The notes below the pieces were generated by a model. It saw only the letters and a list, made by a program, of their open reading frames with translations. It made no database searches and was not told the origin of the DNA. DNA of 64,000 nt from Dictyostelium discoideum (Eukaryota): contig CM000155.2 of the NCBI GenBank assembly GCA_000004695.1, forward strand, positions 992,001-1,056,000. Reading direction: 5' to 3'. Position 1 is the first letter of the stretch. Each line of letters starts with the position of its first letter. Of this stretch, positions 14,156 through 64,000 are shown piece by piece. The translations under genes were made by a program, and so were the position numbers.

Positions 14156-16876
14156 TCAATATCCAATAGGAATTTCAATATCAATTAAATAACCTTTTGA
14201 AATGAAATAATTAACAAATTTGTGAATTTTTGTTATTTTGGTGTGTAATTGAATATTTCTAGTGACAACACTTTCAATTTTGAAATTTGGATATAAATTA
14301 TTTAAAAGTAATTCACAAAAGGGAATAACGGAATGATTTGATAAATCTAAACGTTTTGTGAGATTATCAACACAATTTAAATCGGTTAATTTTAATAAAC
14401 TGTCAATATTTGTGAATAAACTTTGATATTTGACAATTAAACTTTCATTTGCATTTAAAAGAGATTTATTCCAAAAATCTTTAATTTTAGTTTGAATATT
14501 TGATTTTTCTTCTTGACTATTATTATTTTTGTTATTGTTGTTGTGAAATATTAAAATATGATTAATTAAATTGAAATTTTTTAATAATGATTCTCGATTT
14601 GATACTTTATGGTTAACAATTAAATTTGCCACTGATTGACAAGAACAAAATTTAAAGAATTTTTCAAATGATTTAGAATCCATTGAGGAGTTTAGTGTAT
14701 TTTCAAAAACCTTTAAAGAATAATAAAATACTCTTCCATTTTCCAATTCTTTACAAGATGGACAATTATTATAACTACTACCACTAATACTACTACTATT
14801 ACTACTATTATTACTAATATTTGAAAAAGTTAATTGAATAACTGAACCAACTGTTTGATTTGAAGAATCATTTAATAATTGTTGAATTAATTCCAAATGT
14901 TTCAAAAATAAATCATATCTTTTAATATTAAGGAAATAAAGTAAGTTTGAATTTAATGAATCATTAATATTATAAACCAAATTTGAAAACAAAGCTTTTG
15001 AAGATGGTGGTAATAATGATAAAGTATTTGAAGGTAAAATTGAAATTCTTTCAATTAAACTATCCATTAATTCATTATGATTCATTCCTCTATTACCAAA
15101 AATTCCTTTGCCAAATATTAGATTAAATGTAAAATAGTTTGGATTTAAATATTTTCTAATATCATAACCATCAAATTTATAATCTTTATCTTCAAAGTAA
15201 TGCTTTTTATCGTTGACTGGTTGATCATTAAAAACTGAAGTAATAAATGGAAATTCCATTAAATATTTGGTAAAGTATTGTGATTTAATATTTAAATAAT
15301 GAATTGAATGATAGATAGTATGATGAATTGGTATATTTGCAATTTGAATTAATCTATAAATATATCTAACCCTTTCAATAACTATACCATCTTTTGAAAT
15401 TAATCTTTTAAACATAAAGTTTATAATATCTTCTAAAACCAATAGATAGTGTTCGCTATTGTTGTTACTTGATGTATAATTTCTTTTATAAAGATCAATG
15501 AAAATTTCAATGCATTCAATAAGAGGAATTATATTTGCTGATGATGATTTAAAAAGAATTGGTTTGGATCTTGTATTTTCAAAAACTATAAAATGATAAT
15601 TATTTTTAAATTCATTCCATTTCTCTTTGAATTTTTCTAAATTTGATTCAATTAAATTATATGAATTATGGAATACTAATTTAAATACATGCGAGAATCC
15701 AAAATCTATAGCTCTAACCAAACATTTAAATGTTTCATCAATATGTTGATTGAAATTAATTTTAACTTTTAAAATTTCTAAATAATCATTTGAAGAAGAT
15801 GACGATGATAAAGAAGATGATGAAGAAGATGATTCACTTAAACTACTTGAAGTTTTTGTAATATGATTAACATATCTAAAGAAGTTTTGTGGGGTACCAA
15901 TTTTTGTAAAATTTGTTTTTTCTAAATAATTTGAAAATTTAACAATTTGATTAGCAGTTTCTAAATAAAAATATGGTATTGAATTAATATCAACAATGGA
16001 ATCAATTTGAAAAACTGTTTCATAATCTTGAGTTTTAATGGCTTCATTATAAGGAAACTTATATAACCATTGGAGATATCTAATATATTCTTGATTGTTA
16101 ACAACATTGGGTGGTGGTGGTGATAAAAATTTAAATTTTGGATTATTAATTTCTAATGATCTCTCCATTGCATATTGAACCAATTGATAGGTTTGAAAGT
16201 GAAATGATGATGATCTTTCATTAAATTGATAGAATAGGTCATCCAATGATTGATTTTCAATATTATCAAAAAACCAATCAATAGTTTCTTTATCTTTTAT
16301 TAAGATTTGAAATGATTTTAAATTTAATAGATGATTCCATTTATTTGGCAATATATGTTTGAATCTATTATCCCAACGATTGGTTGATTTTAAAAGATTG
16401 ATTAATTTTTCATAACTCTCTGAATCTTTTACATTTGAAAATATAAAGCTCTTTATTGTATAATCTAAATCTTTGTTTGAAAAGTATCTTTCATCCAATG
16501 ATATATAAAATTCAACAAATTCATAAAATTCATTGAAACTTGTATCCCATTTAAATGTTTTATATCTTAATTCTAATTTTTTAAATAATAATTGATTCTT
16601 AATTAAATCATTAATACTTTTATAATCAATATCAATATTATTATTATTTTCATTATTATCGCCATTATTATATAATGATACTAATGATTTGAATGAATTT
16701 GTATTAAATGATAATAACATCCAATTAAGTAACATTAAAATTTGTGGATTATTTGATAATTCTTTAATTGGTTCTTTATATTGATCTAAATAATTTTGAT
16801 AAAATTTATTGAAATCTTGTTTTGCCAATTGTTTATGAATTTCTTTTATTTTATTTTCTTCATTATCAATAAAACA

Positions 16877-35244: not shown

Positions 35245-38001
35245 ATGTTTAGTAGTATAACAAGTAAATTATCAGCAATTTCAGGTGGATCAAGTAAAAA
35301 TGATTATAAAGAAGCAAATTATTATAATTATTTTAGAATTTTAGAAAAGAAACAAACTGAAGAGATTGCAAGAAAAAGATGTGGTTTATATAGTTTAAAA
35401 AATCATAATAATGTATTTGTTTTAAAAGAGTTTTCAATTGAAACTGAAATTAATGATTGTAGTTCAACATCAATTTGGACACAAAGCTATTCAAATGATT
35501 CAAATACACCAGTCGAGGCAAAGTATCAATTACCATTACATCCAACATCGGTTGTATCAAATTTTCAAATTGAATATCAAGGTAAAGTAATTCAAGGTAA
35601 AATCAAAGAGAAAGAGAAAGCATTAGAGAAATACAATGATGCAATTGCAAGTGGTGGTCAAGCATTTATGGCAACAAAATCAGATGACGGTTATTTCAAT
35701 TTAACACTTGGTAATTTACCACCAAAAGAGAATGTTAAAGTTAGAGTTGTAATCTCATCAGAGTTGGGTACACATACCGATGGTCAATTACATTATTGTC
35801 TTCATCGTTATATGTTCCCATCTTATGCATTCAATTTCAACTATAATGTAGTTTTAAAATTTTCAATTCCAATTAAATCGATTGATTGTGATGGTTTTGA
35901 TGTAAATGTAAATTATAAAGAGAATTCAAGTAAAAAAGAAGCAAAAATCACATCAAAATCACAGCATACAAGTGGTGTTAAAAAGAATATAATTTTAATT
36001 ATTCAACCTGTTGAGCTAAATGAACCAAAATCCATGATTGAATATATTGGTGGTGGCGATGATAAATCTTATGCAACAGCAATTAATTTTTATCCATCAT
36101 TCAAGAATGTTAATCCAGATGAAGTTTATCAAAAGAGTGAATTTATTTTCTTAATTGATTGTTCTGGTTCAATGAGTGGTCAATCGATTAATAAAGCTAG
36201 ACGTGCTATGGAAATTATTATTAGATCATTGAATGAACAACATAAAGTAAATATCTATTGTTTTGGTTCATCTTTTAATAAGGTATTCGATAAATCAAGA
36301 GTTTACAATGATGAAACCTTAGAGATTGCAGGTTCATTTGTTGAGAAAATTTCAGCAAATTTGGGTGGCACAGAATTATTACCACCAATGGTTGATATTC
36401 TTTCCTCTCCAAATGATCCAGAGTATCCAAGACAAGTTTTCATTCTAACCGACGGTGAAATCTCTGAAAGGGATAAATTAATTGATTATGTAGCAAAGGA
36501 AGCAAATACAACTCGTATCTTCACCTATGGTATTGGTGCTAGTGTCGATCAAGAATTGGTTATTGGTCTTTCAAAAGCATGTAAAGGTTATTATGAAATG
36601 ATCAAAGAGACTACCAATATGGAGAAACAAGTAATGAAGTTATTAAATGTTGCATTTGAACCAATGCTTTCAAATATTAAATTGGATTGGTCATCATGTG
36701 GTCTTGTTGATGTCATTCAAGCACCTTCTCACATTAGACCACTTTTCAATCAAGAGAGAATGATGATCTATTCAATGATACCATCAAATCAAACCAATCA
36801 AGATATCATCAATGCCTCTATTGAGACTTCAAAACCATTAATAATCACTTTAACTGGTGATGGTCCAAAAGGTAATGTTTTATCATTCCCAATCACTTTA
36901 GATTTTAAAAATGATCTTTCTACAAATTCAAATCAAATTCATACTCTAGCTGCTTTTAAACATATTCAAGATCTTGAAGAAAGTGAAAGAAAAGAAAAGA
37001 AGGATAATAAAGATAAAATCGTTGAATTGGGTAAGAAATATGGTTTAGTTTCAAAACATACCTCTTATATTGTTACCGCTGATTCTGATAATGTCACTGA
37101 AGAAACAATGAAAACTGTTGACATTATGAATCAATCACCTCCTATTCGTCCTGGTGGTCGTATTGTTTCTAGAGGTGGTGGTAGAAGTGGTGCTAGTGGT
37201 GCTTTATCTTCAAGTATTTTGTCAAGAAAACGTTCATCCTCCCCATCTACTGCTACTAAACGATCTTCTTCATCTTCATTTTCATCTTCATATTTATCTT
37301 TATCATCTTCATCCCAAAAGAAGAAAAAAGAAGTTAGTAGAAGTGATGATGATGACGATGATGAAAAAATAGAAAATTGTGTTGAAAGTTATGAAAGTGA
37401 CGGAGGTGATCAATCAAGTGAACAAGATGAAGAAGAAGAAGACGATTGTGATGATTTCCATGAAGATCTAGACGAAGATTTAGGTGCTACCGCAATGGAT
37501 GTTGATAAAAAAGAATGTGAAAAAGAATGTAAAAAGAAAGATTCTTCAAAAGTTGACCTTAAAGTCAAACCTTCAAAAGTACCTCTACCATCAAGATCAC
37601 CTTCAGTTTCAAAACCAACAACAACATCACTACTTTCTCCATCTCCAAAATCAGCACCATCAGCACCATCACAACAAAAATCAGTTAAAAGTACTGGTGA
37701 TTTATTAATTGATTTATTAAAAATTCAAAAATCAAATGGTTCTTGGACAAAATCTTCTATTGATCAATTGAAAATCCCAACTGACAAAGCACCTGCCGAA
37801 TTATCAACTACTGAATTAAATGACATTTGGGTAACCATTATCGTTATTGCAAAGATTGTAAAATTCTTCTCATCTGAAAAAGCTCAATATGAACTTGCAA
37901 TTCAAAAATCAACAAGATGGGTAAAACTTCAATTATCGAAATTAAATCTTCCTGAAAATACTTTTGATAAATTTTTATCAAACGCTAAATCATTAGTTTA
38001 A
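35245..38001 (+). CDS. VIT + von Willebrand factor A domain protein (VWA5A / ITI-heavy-chain-like)
   Basis: VIT N-terminus ('..NYFRILEKK..VEAKYQLPLHPTSVVSNFQIEYQGKVIQGKIKEKEKALEKYNDAIASGGQAF..'). VWA MIDAS 'FIFLIDCSGSMSG'. Acidic/Ser-rich linker. Conserved C-terminal block shared with 54109..56990. Confidence 0.8.
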   Translation: MFSSITSKLSAISGGSSKNDYKEANYYNYFRILEKKQTEEIARKRCGLYSLKNHNNVFVLKEFSIETEINDCSSTSIWTQSYSNDSNTPVEAKYQLPLHPTSVVSNFQIEYQGKVIQGKIKEKEKALEKYNDAIASGGQAFMATKSDDGYFNLTLGNLPPKENVKVRVVISSELGTHTDGQLHYCLHRYMFPSYAFNFNYNVVLKFSIPIKSIDCDGFDVNVNYKENSSKKEAKITSKSQHTSGVKKNIILIIQPVELNEPKSMIEYIGGGDDKSYATAINFYPSFKNVNPDEVYQKSEFIFLIDCSGSMSGQSINKARRAMEIIIRSLNEQHKVNIYCFGSSFNKVFDKSRVYNDETLEIAGSFVEKISANLGGTELLPPMVDILSSPNDPEYPRQVFILTDGEISERDKLIDYVAKEANTTRIFTYGIGASVDQELVIGLSKACKGYYEMIKETTNMEKQVMKLLNVAFEPMLSNIKLDWSSCGLVDVIQAPSHIRPLFNQERMMIYSMIPSNQTNQDIINASIETSKPLIITLTGDGPKGNVLSFPITLDFKNDLSTNSNQIHTLAAFKHIQDLEESERKEKKDNKDKIVELGKKYGLVSKHTSYIVTADSDNVTEETMKTVDIMNQSPPIRPGGRIVSRGGGRSGASGALSSSILSRKRSSSPSTATKRSSSSSFSSSYLSLSSSSQKKKKEVSRSDDDDDDEKIENCVESYESDGGDQSSEQDEEEEDDCDDFHEDLDEDLGATAMDVDKKECEKECKKKDSSKVDLKVKPSKVPLPSRSPSVSKPTTTSLLSPSPKSAPSAPSQQKSVKSTGDLLIDLLKIQKSNGSWTKSSIDQLKIPTDKAPAELSTTELNDIWVTIIVIAKIVKFFSSEKAQYELAIQKSTRWVKLQLSKLNLPENTFDKFLSNAKSLV

Positions 38002-43336: not shown

Positions 43337-43369
<33 letters not shown>

Positions 43370-43871: not shown

Positions 43872-44746
43872 TTATTTACATTCAAGTCCACAAAAAATGA
43901 TTGAATATCCTGCAAATATTGAAAAAATAAAAATGGAAAAAAAAAAAAAAAAAAAAAAAAAGTAGAATATTAATATTATTATTTTTATTACTATTAAAAA
44001 AAAATAATAAAAATAACTTACTTGTTTTGTAATTACTTGATTTTTATCTAATTTCTTTGAGAATAACTCTTTTAATTTCTCTTTCATATCACTAAAACCT
44101 TCTATTAGAGCTCTTTGTTGAGTTGGTGGTAATGTTTTACTAAATACATCTTGACCCATTTCAAAAACATTAACAGGTTTATTATCAAGATTTTCATCTA
44201 CAGTTTTATTCTTTTTTTTTAAAGAGTTTTCATCTTTTTCAAATAAGAACTCAACTTTTTTATCTTTATAAATTTCTTTACACTTTAAACAACTACATAA
44301 CTCATCTTTCCATAACTCTTTACAAAATAAATCATACTTTTTGTTTGGAGTTATAACTCCACCTTCAACTTTACAAATACTATTACTATTATTACTATTA
44401 TTGTTATTATTATTATTATCACCAATTATGATATGATCATTTTCAATATAACATCTAATCTGTGGATATAATAAAAGGAATTGATTTTTTGATAAACAAT
44501 CAGCACAAATTAAATCTGAAAATTCACCAGGACTTGGAATATCTGTAACGTTTGAATTTAATTTTAAACAATTCTCGTGGAACCAATCTTCACAAAATAT
44601 ACATTGAATCATATCTTCTTTATAGTCATAAGGACTATCACAATAACAATATTTTCCTTTAAAATTATGATTATAATGATTTCTTTCATTTAAAATTTGA
44701 CTTTTATCATATGATCCAATATCAATATCATTTAAATGGTTATTAT

Positions 44747-45445: not shown

Positions 45446-47002
45446 TTTTGTATCATTAATCCAAAAAAATAAATAAAAAAAAAAATGGAAAAATAAAAAA
45501 AAAATTAAAAAAAAATGAAAAAAAAAAAAAAAAAAAAAAATTCAAAATTAAAAAATTTCAAGGTGCAAATTAAAAGAATAAAAAATAATAATTAATTAAA
45601 AAGGATGAAAATCAAATTTGGTATGGATAAAAAAGGAAAATCAACATAAAAAAAAATAATAATAATAATAACAATTTTATTTTTTTAATTTGTATTATTT
45701 TTAAGTTATAAATAAAAACAAGAAAAAAAATTTTTTTAATATAAAAATAAATATTAATCTTTTTTTTTTTTTTTAAGTTGTAATCTAGATCGATTTTAAT
45801 ACCGGTAAGATTTTTATTTAGAAATTTTCGAATGGATCTAACTCACAACTTAGAAAAAAAAAAAGAGATAAAAAAAAAAAAAATAATAATAATAAATTTT
45901 ATAAAAAAAAAAAAAAAAAAAAGAGATAAAAAAAAAGAAATTAATTTCTTATTCCCAGTTTTATTTGATTTTTGATTTAAATCAAAAATTAAAAAAATAA
46001 AAAAAAATATCAAAGCATCCTTGTTTTTCAAACCTTTTTTTATTTTTGTTTTTAATTTTTTTTTTTTTTTTTTTTTTTATTTTTTTTTGAATTTTTTTGA
46101 ATTTTTTTTTTTTCACGCAAATTTTTTTTTTTTTTATTTATCAATTTAACCACACAAATAAATAAATAACATAAATAGATATAAAAAAAAAGTAAGATAA
46201 TCAACACCACATTCATTATTTAATTAAAAAACAATGTTATTTTGCTATAAATATAAGATAAATAAATAAAAAAAAAAATAATAATAATAAAATAATAATA
46301 TAAATAATAATTATAAAATAATAATAAAAGAATAATATTACTATTAAAATAATAATTATGTTATGTTAAATAAACTTTTTTTTTTATAAAACTTAAATTT
46401 TTAATAATTTCATCATTATTTTGATATACACAAACATGTGTACCTTTTATTTTTTTTTTATTTTTTTTTTTTTTTAGAAACACGATAGTGTAAACTTTAA
46501 ATAAAAAAAAAAAATTTTATAAAATATTTACAAAAAAACACCCCCACTAAATAAATATAAGAGGCAATTATAATTTAAATCACATGTATGTGAATACCAA
46601 TAATTACAAAGTTTGGGAAAAAAAATAAAATAAATAAAAATAAAAAATAAAATAAAAAAAAAAAAACAATAATAAAAACAACCACCTTTTCTTTTTCTCT
46701 CTTTTGTGTGGTTTTTTTTTTTTTTTATAAAAAATAAATAAATAATAAATAATAATAATAATAAAAATTTATTATTTATAAACACACATTATTCTTTTTT
46801 TTAATTTTATTTTTATTTATTTTTTTTTCTTTTTTTTTTTCTTTTTTTTTTTAATTAATTTTTTCAAAAATAAAAATAATTAAACACACCATATCTTAGT
46901 TTTTAAAATAATATATTACAAAACATGATTAATATTCTAACTAAATTTATTTACAACATTTATTAAATTATAAATCAAATCACAACTTTCATTGTTTCAT
47001 TT

Positions 47003-47036
<34 letters not shown>

Positions 47037-47809
47037 GGTTTTTATATTTTATATTTATCGATAAACCTGCATGGATAATAGTATCGTACATAATAGCAAA
47101 GTAATTCCATTCGACCTCAACTTCTATTAAACAAGAAAAAAAAAAACCAAACCACCAGAGAAAAAAAAAAAAAACCACCAAAAAAAAAAAAAACCCACCA
47201 AAAAAAAAAAAAAACAACTATCAGCACCTTACAATTATACATTCCCCATTTTTTTTTTTTAATTTCAAAAAAAGAATTTAGAACCATAAATTATAGTGTT
47301 TTATTCTTTTATAATCAAATTTTCAACAAAATCAAATTTATAAAGTACTCAGCCTAAAACGTAAGTTTAAAATTATTTCAATCACCAGTAAAAAAATAAA
47401 AAAAACTTATTTTTTTTTTTTGGTCAAAAAGTTTTTTCTGTTTTTTTTTTCATACATTCACACATTCACAAAAAAAAGAAAAAAAAGAAAAAAAAAAAAA
47501 AAAGTTTTTTAGAATTCACAATAATTTTGATTCGATTGTTATGTTAAAACAAATTTCTCAATTTTTTTCATTATTTTAATTTTTTTTTTTTTTTTAAATT
47601 TTTTTTTTTTTCATTTTTAATTAAATACCACGCAAACAAACAACACAAAATTTTTTTTTTTTTTTTATTTCATTTCATTTCATTTTTTTTTTTTTTTTTT
47701 AATTTACACAAACACAAACAAACCAGCAAATAAATAATTAATATATTTTTTTTTATATAAATAATACTTTTACATGGTATAAAAGAGATGTAATTAGGAC
47801 CAGGTAAAA

Positions 47810-48608: not shown

Positions 48609-49340
48609 ACGAATCTTTTATTTTATATATAATTTGAATGTTGAAAATAAATGCAATTTAATTTAAATGTGGAAAAAAAAAAAAAATAAAAAAATAAAAA
48701 AAAACCCAACAAAAATAAAAAAAAAACAGAAATAACGTAAATAAGATAATAAAAAAAATTTATTTTTAACTTTTTTTTAAAAAAAATATGTTATCACCTT
48801 TTCCTTTTATTTTCTTTGTTTTTTTTTTTACCATACATCATCTGTGATTATTTTTTTTTTAATCTTATTTTCTTATTTATTATTTATTTTTTATATTTTT
48901 TATATTTTTTAGTTATTATTTAAATTTTTAAGACACACAAAATATTAATATCATCCAATTCAATTTAGAAATTTCCATCTACCCAACATTATTTTATTTT
49001 TTTTTTTTAACTTTTTTTTTTTTTAATTTTTATTTTTTTTTTTAAATTATTTTTATTTTTTTATTTTTATTATTTTTTTTATTTTATTATTTTTTTATTT
49101 ATTTTATTATTATAATTGGTATTATTATTATTTTTTTTTTTTGGAAATATGGTTTATTTTAAAAAAAGTTAATTAAAATTAAAAAAATTAAAATTTAGGT
49201 AAATAAAAACAGGATATATAATAAATATGGACTTTTCACGAATACAATTATTTTTATTTTTATTTTTTTGTTTTTTTTTTTTTTTTTTAAAAATTTTTTT
49301 TCATTTTTTTTTTTTTTTTTTCAACTTTTTTTAAAAAATT

Positions 49341-50111: not shown

Positions 50112-50153
<42 letters not shown>

Positions 50154-50269
50154 TTTTTTTCAATTTTTTTCAATTTTCTTTCCCTGGGCAACTAACTTTT
50201 TTTTTTATTATTTAAAAAAAATATTTAACTTGATTTTAAAAACCCATAGATATTTTCCCCATGGAATAA
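49751..50269 (+). CDS. eIF4E-binding protein (4E-BP) homolog; exon 1 49751..50042 is secure; a terminal micro-exon 50250..50269 is tentative
   Basis: 'RAIP..[37 protein letters not shown]' matches the 4E-BP family including the eIF4E-binding YxRxxLLxxR motif. Donor GTAAGT at 50043. The only downstream AG acceptors give a C-terminal '..DIFPME*'. Confidence 0.65.
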
Positions 50270-50307
50270 GGGGGGAAAAAAAAAAAAAAAAAGTAGTATT
50301 GTATAAA

Positions 50308-50354
<47 letters not shown>

Positions 50355-52319: not shown

Positions 52320-52781
52320 AAATTATTTAGATTTTGGTACATTTTTCATAGAAACATGAATCTTTGACTTCAGAGGCATCGGTACCTTGGATTTCAACTT
52401 GGATACCAACACAGGCTTTACGTAAAGAGTCTTTTGATGAGGTGGCCATCATTTTCTTTTTAATGTTGGCGGTATCTGGGCACCAGGCAACAAAACAGAT
52501 TTTGCTCTTTTGGGCACCTTCTTCTTTGTATTGATAGTCGAGGACAACGTATCTACATTCGTTTTCTGGGAGACATTTGGTGAATTCATCGAATGAACAA
52601 CCAGCTGGTAAGGTGGAGTCAACAATGATTTCTTTTGAATCGTCAGAGATTCTGTAGATGATACCACCATATTTACGACCTAACTTTAAATCGTTGAAGG
52701 TTGAAACGCAGTTTGGAGCTAAAGCAATACCTGAAGACATTTTTTATATATAGTTTTTTATTTAGTTGAGTAAGTTCGGTT
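52162..52781 (-). mobile_element. Candidate retrotransposed gene copy: intronless cofilin with a 41-nt 5' leader and a 3' A-tail, bracketed by an 18-bp direct repeat
   Basis: Gene-strand order: TSD - 41 nt - ATG..cofilin CDS..TAA - A20 - about 120 nt with a duplicated 'TCCTCATACATATAAT'+A-run - A9 - TSD. Confidence 0.5.
52327..52740 (-). CDS. Cofilin (ADF-H family actin-depolymerising protein), 137 aa, intronless; corresponds to a Dictyostelium cofilin-1 (cofA/cofB type)
   Basis: 'MSSGIALAPNCVSTFNDLKLGRKYGGIIYRISDDSKEIIVDS...VKDSCFYEKCTKI' is a full-length ADF-H fold with the actin-binding helix 'KMMATSSKDSLRKA'. Confidence 0.9.
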   Translation of the reverse strand: MSSGIALAPNCVSTFNDLKLGRKYGGIIYRISDDSKEIIVDSTLPAGCSFDEFTKCLPENECRYVVLDYQYKEEGAQKSKICFVAWCPDTANIKKKMMATSSKDSLRKACVGIQVEIQGTDASEVKDSCFYEKCTKI

Positions 52782-54108: not shown

Positions 54109-56990
54109 ATGAATTTTATTAAAAAAGTAATTGGTGGTGGTAGTAGTAAAAGTAAAACCGATATTAAAATTGAAGATGAACAACATGAACAACAACATGA
54201 ACAACAACATGAAAAACAACAAATTCCAGATAAAATATCAACAAGTAAAGTAAATTCACCATGTGTTCCACCAACTTGTACATACATTTCAAAAGAAAAT
54301 GTTAGATCAGATTTATCATTAATTAAAGATTTCAATTCAGCCTATTACTATAACTATTATAGAACATTGGAAAAGAATTCCACTAATTTATTAACAAGTC
54401 CAGGTTTAAATACTAAAGTTGTTAGTAACCAATTTACATTAAAAGAATTTAATATTGTTTCAGAGATGACAGATTCATGCATTGTTTCAGTATGGACTCA
54501 GAAATACTCTAATCTATCATTGACACCAGTTGAGGCAGTCTATCAAATCCCATTAGCACCATATGCTACAGTTTCAGATTTTTCTGTAATCTTGAAGGAT
54601 AAAGTATTAAAAGGCAAAATCAAGGAGAACGAAAAGGCCAAAGAGAAATACAACGATGCCATCGCAAGTGGCGGCCAAGCATTCCTTGCTGAAAAAGTTG
54701 AAGGTTTCTTTAAATTACAAATTGGTAATTTACCACCACAAGAAGATGTAACTGTAAATATCACAATTACCTCTGAAATCGGTACACATTTAGAATCATT
54801 ACATTTCTGTTTACATAGATTCATTTTCCCAAAAAGTGCATTCAAATTCAATTATACATTGAATGCATCCCTTTCAACTCCAATCGAAACCATTGAAATG
54901 GATCATTTCCAACCAACCATAACCTACAAAGATGAATCAAAAACAAATGCAACCGTTACAATTTCAACAGAAAATGGTGTTTCAAATAATATCATTGCAA
55001 TTATTGTTCCAAAATATTCTGAAAAACCTGAATCTTTTATTGAATATTCACCAATTGATAAATCATATGCTCTTGCTATTAACTTTTATCCAAAATTCAG
55101 TGTTGGTCTTGATGAAGTTGATCAAAAATCTGAATTTATTTTCGTATTAGATTGTTCAGGTTCAATGTCTGGTAAACCAATTGAAAAATCAAAAATGTAA
55201 TTATTATTATTATTAAAAATATAAATATATCAATTTTAAATTAATTATTAATATTTTTAAATTTTTATTTTTTTTATAGGGCATTAGAAATTTGTATGAG
55301 AAGTTTAAATGAAAATTCTAAATTTAATATTGTTTGCTTTGGTAGTAATTTTAATAAATTATTTGAAACTTCAAAACATTATAATGATGAAACATTACAA
55401 AAAGCAAGTGAATATATTAATAGAATTGATGCAAATTTAGGTGGTACAGAATTATTAGAACCAATTGTTGACATTTTATCAAAAGAAAGTGATCCAGAAT
55501 TCCCAAGACAAGTTTTCATTTTAACTGATGGTGAAATTTCAAATAGAGATAAATTAATTGATTATGTTGGAAAGGAAGCAAATACAACTCGTATCTTTAC
55601 CTATGGTATTGGTTCTTATGTTGATAAAGAGCTTATTGTTGGTGTTTCAAAAGCATGTAAAGGTTATTATGAAATGATTGTTGATAACTCTGATATGGAA
55701 GAAAAAGTTATGAAATTAATTAGTATTGCAATGCAACCAACTCTATCAAATATTAAAGTTGATTGGGGTGTTCTTTCAAATGTAGTTCAATCACCTGCTC
55801 AAATTAGACCATTATTCAATCAAGAAAGAATGATGATTTATGCAACCCTTGATAAAGAGCCAACTGAAAAACAAGTAACTGTCATTCTAAGTGGTAATGG
55901 TCCATTGTCTGAAAGAATTTCATTCCCAGTGGATTTGGATTTCAGTAAAGCAAATCAATCAACTAGTCATATTCATACTTTATCAGCTTTCAAACATATT
56001 CAAGATCTTGAAGAAAGTGAAAGAAAAGAAAAGAAGGATAATAAAGATAAAATCGTTAAATTGGGTAAGAGATTTGGTTTAGTTTCAAAACATACCTCTT
56101 ATATTGTCACTGCTGATTCTGATAAAGTAACTGAAGAAACAATGAAAACTGTTCAAGTTTTAGAACCAACTCAACAAATCAATACCAGTCCTGGTAGTGG
56201 TAGTGGTTTTATTCCAACAACAAGAGTTCAAGGATCATCATCAGTTTTCCCATCCTCACCAACACCTTTGTCAGGCCCATCACCATACACAGTCTGTGCA
56301 CCACCACCACCACCACCAACATCATCACCATACACAAACTGTGCACCACCTCCACCACAATTTTCCAGATGTATTGCACCACAACCATATCAAAGTGCAC
56401 CAGCACCACCAGCACCACCAGCACCATCAAGACTTTCTCAAGCACAATCACAAATGGATTATTGTGATCAAGAATTATTATGTGAAAGTTTAGAGGGTGA
56501 TTTATTAGTTGAAGAAGAGGAGCTAGAATGTAAGGAAATAGAATGTTCACCACCACAAAAATTAAGTTATATTACACCATTTGCACCAACATCACAAATT
56601 AGTCAATCATCAAGAGAATGTAGATCTAAAAAATCCTCTTCTCCAACAATACAAAAATCATCATCATTACCATCAAGACCATCAACATCATCTTCATCAT
56701 TAATTGAAATTATTCGTCAACAAAAAGCAAATGGTTCATTCACAAAATCATCAGTTTCAAGCTTTATTAATGTTGATACACCACCACCATCATCAGATAT
56801 TCCAGAAGATGTTTGGACAACTCTTTTAATCATTGCAAACTTTATCTTAAACTTTGATTCACAAAAGAGTCAATGGGAATTAGTTTCACAAAAAGCTACT
56901 AAATTTGTTAAACAACAAATTATTAAATCTTCAATCGCTTCAACTTTTGAAACCCTTTTAGAATCTGCTAAAAAATCAATTTCAAATTAA
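54109..56990 (+). CDS. VIT + VWA domain protein, paralog of 35245..38001; join(54109..55196, 55280..56990)
   Basis: Same architecture: '..AVYQIPLAPYATVSDFSVILKDKVLKGKIKENEKAKEKYNDAIASGGQAF..', MIDAS 'FIFVLDCSGSMSG', then the intron (GTAATT..TTTATAG) splitting 'KSKM|ALEICMRSLNE' (compare 'KARRAMEIIIRSLNE'). Pro-rich linker; conserved C-terminal block. Confidence 0.8.
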
Positions 56991-57909: not shown

Positions 57910-57955
<46 letters not shown>

Positions 57956-59055: not shown

Positions 59056-60655
59056 ATGAACAGATATAAAATTCAATGGTTATTTATAATAGTATTAATA
59101 TTAATAATTATAAGTGACACTTGTTTTAGCATAGAGAATAATAATAATAATTATAATGCTATTAATGACGATAATGATAGTTTTAAAGATGGTGGATTTA
59201 CAAGTTGTGGAGGATATATAAAGAATAATTTCAAGTATACTCAAAATAATTTCAATTACAGTAAAATAGTAATGAAATTAATAGATATAAGAACTAAAAA
59301 AGTCGTTGAAACTTCAGAATGTTCACCAATTGATGGTTATTACTTTTTACCAGTTTACGAGAGAGGTTCTTATAAAATTCAATTTGATTCACCATCTGAT
59401 TGGATATTTGGTATGTGTTTCATTCTTTTTCATTTTATTATATTTTTAATTATATATTAACTATTTATATATATATATATATATATATTCAAACTAAATA
59501 ATAAAGATATAAATTCATATAAAATTACGGATTTAAGACAATGTAAAAATAAAGATATAAATTTCGAATTATTAGGATTTAAAGTTGAAGGTTATATAAA
59601 AAGTGATAAATCATGTAAAGTAAATAAAAATAATGATAAAGATACTGATGATGCTCATGATGATGATGGTCCAGCTTTATTTGCAATTAATTCATATAAT
59701 ATAAATTATCAGTCAATAAAATTAGAATTACTATTAAAAAAAAATAAAAAAAAACAAATTAATAAAGAAAAAGAAGAAAAAGAAGAAGAAGAAAAAGAAG
59801 AAGAAATAGTTGATACAGTATTAACAAGTTTAAATGGTTATTATAGATTTGATGGTGTTAAACCAATTTCAAAATCATCTAATCACTATTATATTATTAG
59901 AATATCAAATGATCAAGTAGCACCAATATCATATTGGAGTTTTTTAAAAGATAAAATTGAATTTCAATTTGATTGGGATAATGTAATAATTGATAAACCA
60001 TTAATTATAAATGGTTTCGATGTTTCTGGTACAGTTTTAAATGATAATGAACCATTAGATTCTGTCATATTAACTTTATATTCAAAATCTTTAACTTCAA
60101 TTAAACATTGTAAACCATTAACAAGTAAGTGCACGCATACCATCCCCTTCTCTTACTTTTTTTAAAAATATTAACTTTTTTTTTTTTTTTTTTTTTTTAT
60201 TATTTTAGATACTATTATTAAAGGATTTAGTTCAATTTGTTCAATTGAATCAAATAGTGATGGTAAATTTATATTTAAAAAAATACCATGTGGAAATGAA
60301 TATAAAATCATAGCACAATATAAAAAAGATAATGTGAAATATGATATTGAACCGGAGGAATATATATTCGATGTTGATGGTAGTGGTAGTTTATCATTGG
60401 ATACTGATAAACAAATCATATTTAAATTGAATGGGTTTAGTGTAACTGGTTTGGTTTTAGATGATAGAGGTTTACCATTCACTCAAGAGATTGTAAACAT
60501 TTATGTAAATGGTCAAATTAAATCTCAAACTCATAAATCTGATGGTTTATATATTTTAGATTCAATAAAACCTGGTACTTATAAAATTGAAGCAAAATTA
60601 AATAATTATAAATTTAATTTACCATCATTAGGTGGTAATAATAATAATAAAAATG

Positions 60656-60709
<54 letters not shown>

Positions 60710-61406
60710 TTTTAATTGAACCACCAAATAATTTAATTATACCAAATATTACATTAAAATCATATCAAATAACTGGTAAATTAAAATTAAGTCAAAAAAT
60801 TGAACTAAATTTAATTCCTTCACTTGGTCTTTATAATCGTAATGATAATTTAGAGAATGGTAATCAAGCAAAATTTATTTATGAAGAAATTGAAGTTTTA
60901 CTAATTGAAAAAATTAAAATTCAATCAACATTTGATTTTAATAATGATATCAATATGAATTTAAATCAAGAGAATGATGAATCATTTGAATATATTCAAG
61001 TTTCAACTTGTAAATTAAATAAACAAGGTTCATTTGAATTTGATGTTATTAAATCTGCAAATTATATTGTTAAAATTAAAGATAGTACTAAAAATCAATT
61101 AATAAACAATAATATTCAATTGGAAAGAGATGAATTTCACGTAACTTTAAATCATAAATCAATTGGTGGTTTAGAATTTAGACAAATCACTACCCAAATT
61201 AATGGTAAAATTAAACCAATAACAAAATCAAATGATATTAGAATACCTTCTGGTTTATTAGTTGAATTAATTAAATTAATTGAAGTTGATTCACCACTAA
61301 ATCCAGATCAACAACAACAACAACAACAACAAGCATAACAATGAAAATCAAGATAATAATCCTAATCATAATAATAATAATAATAATAATAATAGTAATA
61401 ATAATG

Positions 61407-61449
<43 letters not shown>

Positions 61450-64000
61450 AATTAAAAGAATAATTAAAATTGAATCAACAGAACAATCTATATTTATTCA
61501 GCCATATGTTAATAATCAAGGTGAAGCTATATTTACATTTGATGATTTATTAATTGGTTATTATAGATTAAGAATTGATTACGATGATTGGTATTGGGAA
61601 GAGAAAGAAATTGAATTATTTGATATACCACCACCATTATAATTAATCTTTGATAATGATAATGATAGTGAAACAAAAAGAAATGAAAAAATTCAATCAC
61701 TATTGGAATCTGTTAATATCGTTGAATTCAAACAAACTGGTTTTAAATACATAATTGAATCAAAAAATATTGAACAAGAAGATTCAGTTATAATATCACA
61801 TAGATTAAATGGTGAAATTATTGATAATGTACAATTAAAGAAATTAATTTCACCAGAACAACAACAACAACAACAAGATGATGATAATAATAATAATAAT
61901 AATGAAGAAAATAATAATAATAAAAAGATAACAACAGCAACATTAAATAATTTTATTTTAAAAGAAGGTGGATCACATGAATTTATAGTTAAATCATGTT
62001 TTCAATTTCCAAATGGTGAATCATATACTTTTGATACGAATAATGATTCAAATAAACCAAGTTGGTTAGTAAGTAATAAGATTAAATTAGAGATTGAAAA
62101 ATATTTAATTGAAGGATCAATTGATTTAACAATGCTAATCAATCAATTTCCATCATTAAAAAGACAACAATCAAATCAACAAGGTGGTTTAACAATTAGA
62201 ATTAAATTAATTAATCCAAAAACTAATCAATTACTTGATCAATTAGATACTTCAATCTCTGATTCTTCAATGATTTATCAATTTAATTTCATGTCTTCCT
62301 TAAATGATGACCAAATTCAATTAATACCAATTATCAATTTTAATAATTTTATTAATGATAATGGTAATGGTGATGATTTAATAATAATAACTAAAGATGA
62401 TATTTTATTTTATCCATCTTCAAGAGTTTTTAAAATCGATCCAAAAGATAAAGGTAAATGTCAATTACCAATTGAACCATTTATTGGTAAATTTGGTAAA
62501 TTTATAAATGGTAAAATTGATCCACCACCAACTGGTGGAATGGTAAAGGTTATTGCTACTGCACAATCTTTAAATGATGTTGGTTCAATTAAGAGTGCTG
62601 AAATCTCTACAATTTCAAATGAAAATGGTGAATATAGAATTGGACCACTTTATGAAAATGTTAAATATGAATTTTATCCAATTAAAGAAGGTTTTCATTT
62701 TAAACAAATTTTTCATAATAATAATAATAATGGTGAAACATCATCATCGTCGTTTATTAATTTTAAATCAATTAAACATGGTTCAATTAAAGTTTTCATT
62801 AAAGATAGTAAAACAAATTTACCTGTTCCTGATGTTTTATTATCATTAAGTGGTGCTATTAATTCTCCAATTTTAAATAATAATGGTCAACAACAACAAC
62901 AACAACAACAACAACATGACGATGATGGTAAAAATCAAGAAATTCCACCATATCGTAAAAATGTTCAATTATCAGATAATGGTTCAATTATATTTGATTC
63001 ATTATATCCAAATAGATATTACTTAAGATCTGTATTAAGAGAATATTCAATTACACCAAGCTCACAAATTGTTCAAGTTTTGGAGGGTAAAGAAGAATTG
63101 ATTGAATTGGTTGCAACTAAAGTATTGTTTTCAGCAAGTGGTAATGTTTGTTCATTAAATAATGTTCCATTTTCAAATATTTATGTATTTTCATACAAAG
63201 TTATAGAATTAAAAGATTTTGATGGTAATTTAATTTCAACATCATTGGAATTATTTAAAGAATGTAAAACTGATGAAAATGGTAATTTTAAATTAAAAGA
63301 TTTTACAATTTCTTCAAAATATAAAATTAAAATTTCAACTGATAATAATGATACTAATAATAATGAAAAAAGTGCACCAATAATTTATGATATTAAATAA
63401 AAATGAAAATGATATTAAAGACTTAAATTTCATTTTAATAGTTCAACCAACAACACCATCAATTAATACTTTTCAATTGGTTGGTAATATTGTAATGAAT
63501 GGTAATTTAAATAATTATAAAAGACAAAATCAATTTATGCATTCATCAATTAATAATAATAATAATCATTATTATTATTATTATTATAAACAAAATATCA
63601 ATAATAGTAATAATAATAATAATATATTACCAAAAGGATTAAAAGTACATATTTATACAAAAAGTAGAAGTGGTAATCAATTACTATTGGTAAAATCATT
63701 AGATATATCAATGTTTAATATGTTTACAAGTTTATTAGATAAAACTAAACTATCATCAAAACCATATTTAATTAGAATTGAAAAAGAATCAACTAGATCA
63801 ACGAATAATAACAATATTAATAATAATAATAACTTATACCAAATTGAACCAAAAGAAATTGAAATTCCAATGGAATGCTCAAATTTTAAAGAACAATGTA
63901 ATGTCACTTTTCAATTTAATTTTAAGACATCCAGCAGTGGTTTACTTGATGACAATAATGGTGGTGGTGATGATGATCATCAATTCGATTTAGTATCAAT
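59056..64000 (+). CDS. NOMO (nodal modulator)-like protein made of repeated carboxypeptidase-regulatory-like beta-sandwich domains; it runs off the 3' edge of the window; exons 59056..59410, 59507..60124, 60209..61338 are supported, after which the reading frame is disrupted
   Basis: Signal peptide 'MNRYKIQWLFIIVLILIII'. Repeated 'GF.V.G.V......P......V.L.....G.Y.F..V.PG.YKI.' units. Donors are GTATGT and GTAAGT. Downstream coding continues in a second frame (61340-63400, with an in-frame TAA at 61640-61642) and a third frame (63384 to beyond 64000). Confidence 0.55.

Follow-up and report, generated by a model that had tools for sequence, protein, structure and literature searches.

The DNA analyzed here (the window) is a 64,000-nucleotide stretch of chromosome 6 of Dictyostelium discoideum AX4, in which three neighboring proteins exactly match DDB_G0292010, DDB_G0292012, and DDB_G0292016. 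From 59056 to beyond 64000 lies a gene that we identify as an ortholog of NOMO with two canonical introns. NOMO, one of the subunits of the BOS complex in the ER membrane, is a type I membrane protein in which beta-sandwich domains follow one another in a string. The main comparison was with assembly GCA_054883475.1, designated here by its locus-tag prefix, ACTFIT, which was built independently from Nanopore and Illumina data for the same lineage as AX4. The exons and introns of the gene, and the sites at which the AX4 reference departs from ACTFIT, are as follows.

59056..59410, forward strand: NOMO exon 1, with the ATG at 59056; signal-peptide-like N-terminus and first NOMO beta-sandwich
59411..59506, forward strand: intron 1, 96 nt, GTATGT..AG, phase 1, read from the sequence
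59507..60124, forward strand: NOMO exon 2, open in frame 1 and collinear with exon 2 of D. firmibasis and D. dimigraforme
60125..60208, forward strand: intron 2, 84 nt, GTAAGT..AG, phase 1, fitting the 1649-aa ACTFIT model
60209..64000, forward strand: NOMO exon 3, the last exon, with ~184 nt more past the window end as judged by comparison with ACTFIT
61334, forward strand: extra C in the reference (CAAGCATAAC, versus CAAGATAAC), giving the first +1 frameshift; absent from ACTFIT
61361..61641, forward strand: patch of 10 reference-private substitutions, at 61361, 61362, 61367, 61395, 61406, 61461, 61501, 61582, 61623, and 61641
63397..63402, forward strand: garbled stretch (junction 3), AAAT--AAAA in the reference versus AATTTTGATG in four D. 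discoideum/cf. discoideum genomes

A sequence-only reading of this DNA had called the gene NOMO-like, and domain matches bear this out. Exon 1 matches Pfam NOMO1-like_1st at 53 bits (cut-off 27, E = 3.7e-14), and matches above the gathering cut-offs were also obtained in exon 3 for NOMO_3rd (31.8 to 32.7 bits, cut-off 27), Ig_NOMO (27.7 to 31.4 bits, cut-off 27.5), and NOMO1-like_9th (38.7 to 40 bits, cut-off 27), along with a weak match to NOMO_8th (16.6 bits). In the PDB, exon 3 of the gene has a match in human NOMO2 (chain 9c7v_B, E = 8e-36). In an exhaustive search of representative proteins, the best matches were 1100- to 1400-aa proteins with the same collinear domain order; these orthologs are 36 to 39% identical, and their protein sequence runs on across junction 3.

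The corrected protein of 1649 aa has, by inspection rather than by predictor, the topology of a type I membrane protein: a hydrophobic, signal-peptide-like N-terminus (WLFIIVLILIIISDTCFS), a large luminal domain, a single C-terminal transmembrane segment encoded past window position 64000, and a C-terminus reading ISYSSLIIGLVVVLLIFYP followed by a Lys/Ser-rich tail. It thus resembles human NOMO1/2/3 in its hydrophobic N-terminus, long beta-sandwich chain, single C-terminal hydrophobic segment, and short basic tail, as well as in carrying the NOMO-specific 1st, 3rd, Ig_NOMO, and 9th Pfam domains. It is longer than human NOMO2 (1649 aa versus the 1267-residue PDB chain), and the extra length consists partly of Asn-, Gln-, and Glu/Lys-rich low-complexity stretches, which differ in length among strains.

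Exon 1 is identical in ACTFIT, whose gene model begins at the same ATG, and removal of intron 1 there leaves an open frame and the annotated product length of 1649 aa. An equivalent of intron 1 is found in both D. firmibasis and D. dimigraforme, and the equivalents of intron 2 are 88 and 75 nt long, respectively. In all three of these genomes the two introns alone give the annotated protein lengths. Exon 3 should read as one open frame, and it does so, over 1336 to 1397 codons, in seven other Dictyostelium genomes, while in the AX4 reference it falls into four frame segments of 387, 100, 585, and 205+ codons.

The breaks between these segments lie exactly where the sequence-only reading had put them. 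With frames defined by coordinate modulo 3, frame 1 runs without a stop from the beginning of exon 3 (60209) to a TAA at 61336-61338, and frame 2 opens at 61301, after a TAA at 61298-61300, which confirms the +1 shift proposed within 61301-61335. Frame 2 contains the in-frame TAA noted at 61640-61642 and ends at a TAA at 63398-63400. From 63384 through the window end, frame 0 contains no stop, in agreement with the second +1 shift proposed within 63384-63400. The 9-mer GATATTAAA does recur 22 nt apart, at 63389 and 63411, as that reading had observed.

Over the 4945-bp gene, ACTFIT and the window are identical except at 61334, at the 10 positions within 61361-61641, and at 63397-63402. Deletion of C61334 joins frame 1 to frame 2, and the protein then reads ..QQQQQQQQDNNENQD.. 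across the join. The substitution at 61641 turns TTA (Leu) into TAA in the reference. At junction 3, where the reference reads AAATAAAAATG at 63395-63405, 4 substitutions and 2 missing bases shift the frame by +1 a second time and create the TAA at 63398-63400. With the ACTFIT bases and the two canonical introns, the gene becomes a single uninterrupted ORF of 1649 aa, the annotated product length. The corrected protein at junction 3, ..APIIYDINFDDENDIKDLNF.., agrees with that of D. firmibasis (YDINFDEEND) and that of D. dimigraforme (YDINFNDEND).

The proteins of ACTFIT are identical to AX4 proteins, its NOMO gene is 99.66% identical with all differences confined to the patches, and its place in the accession order corresponds to that in Table 1 of Holland et al. 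2025 (PMC12745789), where AX2-214, sequenced with Nanopore plus Illumina, is the only laboratory strain. On these grounds we infer that GCA_054883475.1 is AX2-214. Six further genomes were compared, namely, ACTFIR, ACTFIW, and ACTFIY, D. citrinum, D. firmibasis, and D. dimigraforme, three of the six being wild D. discoideum or cf. discoideum isolates. All six have the ACTFIT and not the reference sequence at every non-repeat site apart from 61582, including the stop and junction 3, and at 61461, 61501, 61623, and 61641 the seven genomes agree with one another against the reference. In an alignment with ACTFIT, D. firmibasis, and D. dimigraforme, the reference has I for K and D for A at conserved positions. 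The comparison with dictyostelid NOMO orthologs that the sequence-only reading had called for finds all three lesions absent from ACTFIT and the six other genomes, with the last exon uninterrupted (over 1345 to 1397 codons in the six). The dN/dS values of 0.32 to 0.48 for the gene indicate that it is under purifying selection. The possibility that the errors reside in the new assembly instead of the reference was rejected, as its sequence is supported by six further, independent genomes.

Since seven other Dictyostelium genomes carry an intact gene, the frameshifts and stop in the AX4 reference are almost certainly base-calling errors, so that of the three readings offered from the sequence alone (pseudogene, sequence error, or unrecognized introns), sequence error is the one favored. 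The apparent use of three frames and the in-frame TAA would have arisen from low-quality patches in the 2005 Sanger sequence of AX4 chromosome 6: a single base inserted at 61334; a stretch of ~280 bp with 10 miscalled bases, one of which would have made the TAA at 61640-61642; and a garbled stretch of 6 to 8 bases at 63397-63402 from which two bases would have been lost. The corrected gene has three exons and two introns and encodes 1649 aa. We infer that the actual AX4 DNA is also free of the lesions, with GATATTAATTTTGATGATGAAAATG expected at junction 3 in place of the reference sequence. We consider it very probable that the gene is a normal, functional NOMO ortholog broken in the reference by low-quality patches.

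The distribution of the differences over a wider region points the same way. When 21.7 kb of the AX4 reference was compared with ACTFIT, 44 of 45 substitutions fell within five patches of 5 to 346 bp, and the 17 kb of flanking sequence contains three patches, likewise private to the reference. The substitution spectrum is transversion rich (A>C 13, T>A 10) and runs mainly toward GC (AT>GC 24, GC>AT 7). The wild isolates likewise agree with ACTFIT in two intergenic patches, where the base calls of the reference appear smeared (for example, GGGGGGAAAAAAAAAAAAAAAAAG versus GGGGAGAAAGAAAGAAAGAGAAAG in the others). The AX4 reference is the sole outlier with respect to near and distant genomes, its differences are clustered, and their spectrum is nonbiological. 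Among AX4-derived lines, Saxer et al. 2012 (PMC3466296) reported 1916 shared differences from the reference, which they ascribed to reference errors or clone differences. The NOMO lesions resemble such Sanger-era errors in being private to one assembly, in being clustered in short patches beside simple repeats, and in consisting of transversion-rich changes with smeared-looking base calls; they differ in that error is deduced from other assemblies and not from re-read AX4 DNA. A look-up of the reference-specific 565-aa ORF by sequence returned no contig carrying it, which is weak negative evidence. Two features sit less comfortably with error: junction 3 is a complex multibase replacement and not a simple miscall, and two of the five non-repeat substitutions in 61361-61641 are synonymous, which is not as random error predicts but proves nothing.

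The most serious competing explanation is that the lesions are real and occur only in the AX4 (or AX3/AX4) laboratory lineage, with NOMO recently inactivated there and intact in AX2 and wild strains. AX4 DNA is the source of the reference, the comparison rests on other assemblies, and no AX4 protein for this gene was found in protein collections. Moreover, AX3 was derived by chemical mutagenesis. If this explanation were true, AX4 would be a natural NOMO null, and the most widely used reference strain would be without a subunit of the ER BOS complex. It would, however, mean that a 308-bp interval acquired 11 changes and that a complex change of 6 to 8 bp arose as well, with the remaining 4.6 kb of the gene unaltered, and that three similar clusters formed in the 17-kb flank. 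Saxer et al. 2012 (PMC3466296) measured 2.9e-11 mutations per site per generation, a rate far too low to generate such clusters between sister laboratory strains. The transversion-rich, AT>GC spectrum is opposite to the GC>AT expected of nitrosoguanidine or of natural mutational bias, so that clustered mutagenesis of the nitrosoguanidine type is rejected by the direction of the base changes, and the reference patches resemble smeared base calls. The clustering of the differences and the base changes involved thus make real AX4-only lesions very unlikely.

Far less probable still is that unrecognized spliceosomal introns restore a single frame, through removal of 61285-61501, of 61591-61668, or of a GT..AG pair across 63384-63400. 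GT..AG pairs in the right length class that could bridge the frames with no intervening stop do exist: the 217-nt GTTGAT..CAG candidate at 61285-61501 had been correctly located by the sequence-only reading, while the GTATTG..TAG candidate, which it had given as 83 nt at 61589-61671, actually spans 61591-61668 and is 78 nt long. Each candidate would, however, excise coding sequence that is conserved in orthologs (EIKRKIKIESTEQSIF, WYWEEKEIELFA, and YDINFDDEND). The donors are weak (GTTGAT, GTATTG, and GTGCAC), and no candidate combines a GTAAGT or GTATGT donor with an AT-rich body as the two real introns do. The AG acceptor of the 217-nt candidate requires the reference-private G61501, which is A in all other genomes, and two introns already suffice for the annotated lengths in ACTFIT, D. 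firmibasis, and D. dimigraforme. The continuous coding of the disputed stretches in seven other genomes refutes the intron explanation.

Programmed recoding, in which +1 ribosomal frameshifting and stop-codon readthrough would yield full-length NOMO, and an old species-wide pseudogene have as their sole support the fact that domain-like sequence carries on past the breaks, and both can be dismissed: the shift sites and stop are absent from the sister laboratory strain and six other genomes, so there is no conserved candidate recoding signal, and an evolutionary pseudogene is refuted by a last exon that is intact in every other genome and by dN/dS values below 0.5. AX4 NOMO does share with unitary or strain-specific pseudogenes frameshifts and a premature stop in an otherwise recognizable gene, but its lesions are common to no other genome, there is no scattered decay elsewhere in the gene, and its orthologs are under purifying selection.

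The reference errors seem to have kept NOMO out of the AX4 protein set. Searches of protein collections returned no D. discoideum protein for the gene, and neither the 585-aa middle segment nor the low-complexity-masked conceptual protein gave dictyostelid matches there, owing either to saturation by Asn/Gln-rich words or to absence of the protein. Look-ups of a 564-aa vWA ORF and of the AX4 GST protein P0286 returned no record, and we found nothing relevant in the literature on NOMO in Dictyostelium or in dictyBase notes on the locus. The DDB_G numbering itself has no slot for the gene: the GST-like neighbor carries DDB_G0292030 and ric8 carries DDB_G0292036, and the numbers in between are taken up by two other genes that lie between NOMO and ric8.

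The value of the finding is practical and not conceptual. Comparative studies based on the AX4 annotation could conclude in error that the model dictyostelid lacks NOMO, and the corrected model (three exons, 1649 aa) can be obtained directly from GCA_054883475.1. The 21.7-kb reference stretch holds at least five short error-like patches, which counsel caution when frameshifts, pseudogenes, and strain differences are read against the AX4 reference.

The gene that starts at the ATG at 59056 is a NOMO ortholog: it exceeds the cut-offs of the Pfam families NOMO1-like_1st, NOMO_3rd, Ig_NOMO, and NOMO1-like_9th, and it matches human NOMO2 (PDB chain 9c7v_B) with an E value of 8e-36. Two canonical introns precede its last exon.

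NOMO introns in the AX4 reference
59411-59506, + strand: intron 1, 96 nt, phase 1, GTATGT..AG
60125-60208, + strand: intron 2, 84 nt, phase 1, GTAAGT..AG

The sequence-only reading had described two +1 shifts in this exon, within 61301-61335 and 63384-63400, with a stop codon between them. Translating the gene frame by frame bears this out: frame 1 is open from 60209 until a TAA at 61336-61338; frame 2, which begins at 61301, is interrupted by an in-frame TAA at 61640-61642 and ended by another TAA at 63398-63400; and frame 0 is open from 63384. The repeated 9-mer noted at the second shift, GATATTAAA, does occur there, at 63389 and 63411.

Direct protein searches with the window NOMO gave no dictyostelid match, and the locus was located in other assemblies by synteny, the first via the intronless cofilin open reading frame (ORF) at 52327-52740 and the others via the GST-like gene directly upstream of NOMO and its relatives. 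The seven loci comprise ACTFIT (the locus tag of GCA_054883475.1, an independent assembly of the AX4 lineage), two wild D. discoideum isolates (ACTFIR and ACTFIW), D. cf. discoideum (ACTFIY), D. citrinum, D. firmibasis (GCA_036169595.1), and D. dimigraforme. Judging by their accession series, all but D. firmibasis were apparently sequenced by Holland et al. 2025 (PMC12745789), who combined Nanopore and Illumina sequencing and included one laboratory strain, AX2-214. We infer that ACTFIT is that strain because its proteins are identical to those of AX4, because its NOMO gene is 99.66% identical to the AX4 reference (versus only about 90-93% in the wild isolates), and because the accessions follow the order of Table 1 of PMC12745789, with that of ACTFIT at the head.

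In the comparison with other dictyostelids that the sequence-only reading had suggested, the last exon is a single ORF of 1336-1397 codons in all seven other genomes and is broken only in the AX4 reference. Over the 4945 bp of NOMO in the window, the reference and ACTFIT differ at only three places, which coincide exactly with the three frame break points.

Differences between the AX4 reference and ACTFIT in NOMO
61334, + strand: extra C in the reference
61361-61641, + strand: ten differing positions, including 61641 (TAA in the reference, TTA, Leu, in ACTFIT)
63397-63402, + strand: second shift; reference AAAT--AAAA, ACTFIT AATTTTGATG; four substitutions and two missing bases

At 61461, 61501, 61623, and 61641, all six more distant genomes carry the ACTFIT base. 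At the second shift, the three wild isolates are identical to ACTFIT, and D. citrinum, D. firmibasis, and D. dimigraforme retain the two extra bases and an open frame. When the protein is aligned with those of ACTFIT, D. firmibasis, and D. dimigraforme, the reference-specific residues occupy conserved positions, with I in place of K, D in place of A, a stop in place of L, and K-stop in place of NFDDEN. Given the ACTFIT bases and just the two canonical introns, NOMO becomes an unbroken ORF of 1649 aa, the annotated product length; the D. firmibasis and D. dimigraforme genes also reach their annotated lengths with exactly two introns, at equivalent positions. The dN/dS of ACTFIT against the other genomes is 0.32-0.48. 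The corrected protein is hydrophobic at its N-terminus and in a C-terminal segment (ISYSSLIIGLVVVLLIFYP), and it has a short basic tail. Human NOMO is shorter, part of the surplus in Dictyostelium being poly-Gln and poly-Asn tracts. These linkers are encoded by (CAA)n and (AAT)n tracts at 61290-61450 and 60645-60710, whose length and composition vary greatly among strains and species.

Among the explanations that had been offered (pseudogene, sequence error, or unrecognized introns), error is the one that stands: because the lesions are unique to the reference, the frame breaks are very probably errors in it. Errors would also account for the wider pattern, since all but one of the 45 substitutions that separate the reference from ACTFIT in 21.7 kb of comparable sequence lie in five patches of 5-346 bp.

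Substitution patches, reference versus ACTFIT
46853-47198: substitution patch
49119-49237: substitution patch, intergenic
50152-50289: substitution patch, intergenic
61361-61641: substitution patch, in NOMO
63397-63401: substitution patch, in NOMO

The first three patches hold 9-12 substitutions each; outside the five, there are one singleton substitution and homopolymer-length changes. From ACTFIT to the reference, the changes are transversion-rich (A>C 13, T>A 10, A>G 7), with 24 AT>GC versus 7 GC>AT, a spectrum that fits neither natural bias nor an alkylating mutagen. The wild isolates, about 10% diverged, were examined at the two intergenic patches; they side with ACTFIT, and the reference is the sole outlier, its sequence there resembling smeared base calls (CACAA to CCCCA; GGGGAGAAAGAAAGAAAGAGAAAG to GGGGGGAAAAAAAAAAAAAAAAAG).

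The lesions could instead be genuine and private to AX4, but we consider this highly improbable. AX2 and AX4 both descend from strain NC4. In AX4-derived lines, Saxer et al. 2012 (PMC3466296) found 1916 shared differences from the reference; the mutation rate they reported is 2.9e-11 per site per generation. For two NC4 descendants, five clusters of multiple substitutions within 21.7 kb are therefore not credible as real mutations. As for introns, GT..AG pairs that formally join the frames are present; every candidate deletes conserved coding sequence, and none is like the two real NOMO introns. The proposed 217-nt intron (61285-61501, GTTGAT..CAG) was correctly positioned, and its acceptor is made by G61501, a base private to the reference. 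The proposed 83-nt intron (61589-61671) was misplaced; its GTATTG begins at 61591 and its TAG ends at 61668, a span of 78 nt. The absence of the lesions from every relative rules out both an old pseudogene and programmed recoding. On this comparative evidence, the frame breaks are very probably an artefact of the reference sequence and no biological feature, with an ordinary, intact NOMO ortholog underneath.

At eight long poly-A/poly-T runs the reference exceeds ACTFIT by 3-14 bases, and either assembly may be the correct one there.

Longer poly-A/poly-T runs in the reference
43339-43344: longer run
43937-43941: longer run
45518-45521: longer run
45870-45872: longer run
47005-47007: longer run
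50114-50120: longer run
50311-50324: longer run
57914-57920: longer run

Searches of protein collections retrieved no D. discoideum protein for NOMO. The window lies on AX4 chromosome 6, and three single-exon neighbors in it have translations identical to DDB_G0292010, DDB_G0292012, and DDB_G0292016. The GST-like gene is DDB_G0292030 and ric8 is DDB_G0292036 (PMC8369479), with only two numbers between them. At the ACTFIT locus, NOMO and ric8 are separated by two other genes that fit those numbers, one a 299-aa ORF and the other a mitochondrial carrier, so NOMO was probably never assigned a protein-coding model in AX4.

The cofilin gene (52327-52740, - strand, 137 aa) is at the same position in AX4 and ACTFIT, but tblastn detected no cofilin in the ~21-kb syntenic locus of any wild isolate, nor in those of D. 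citrinum, D. firmibasis, and D. dimigraforme, which suggests a lineage-specific copy, inserted or duplicated. The gene lies between the von Willebrand A (vWA) and 4E-BP genes, where ACTFIR has a 501-aa ORF (locus positions 15319-16824) with a weak match to RVT_1 (reverse transcriptase), so a retroelement may have been active in this interval. The window also holds two paralogs with VIT and vWA domains, on the same strand and 16 kb apart: DDB_G0292016 at 35245-38001 and a two-exon gene at 54109-56990 with a 932-aa product in ACTFIT.
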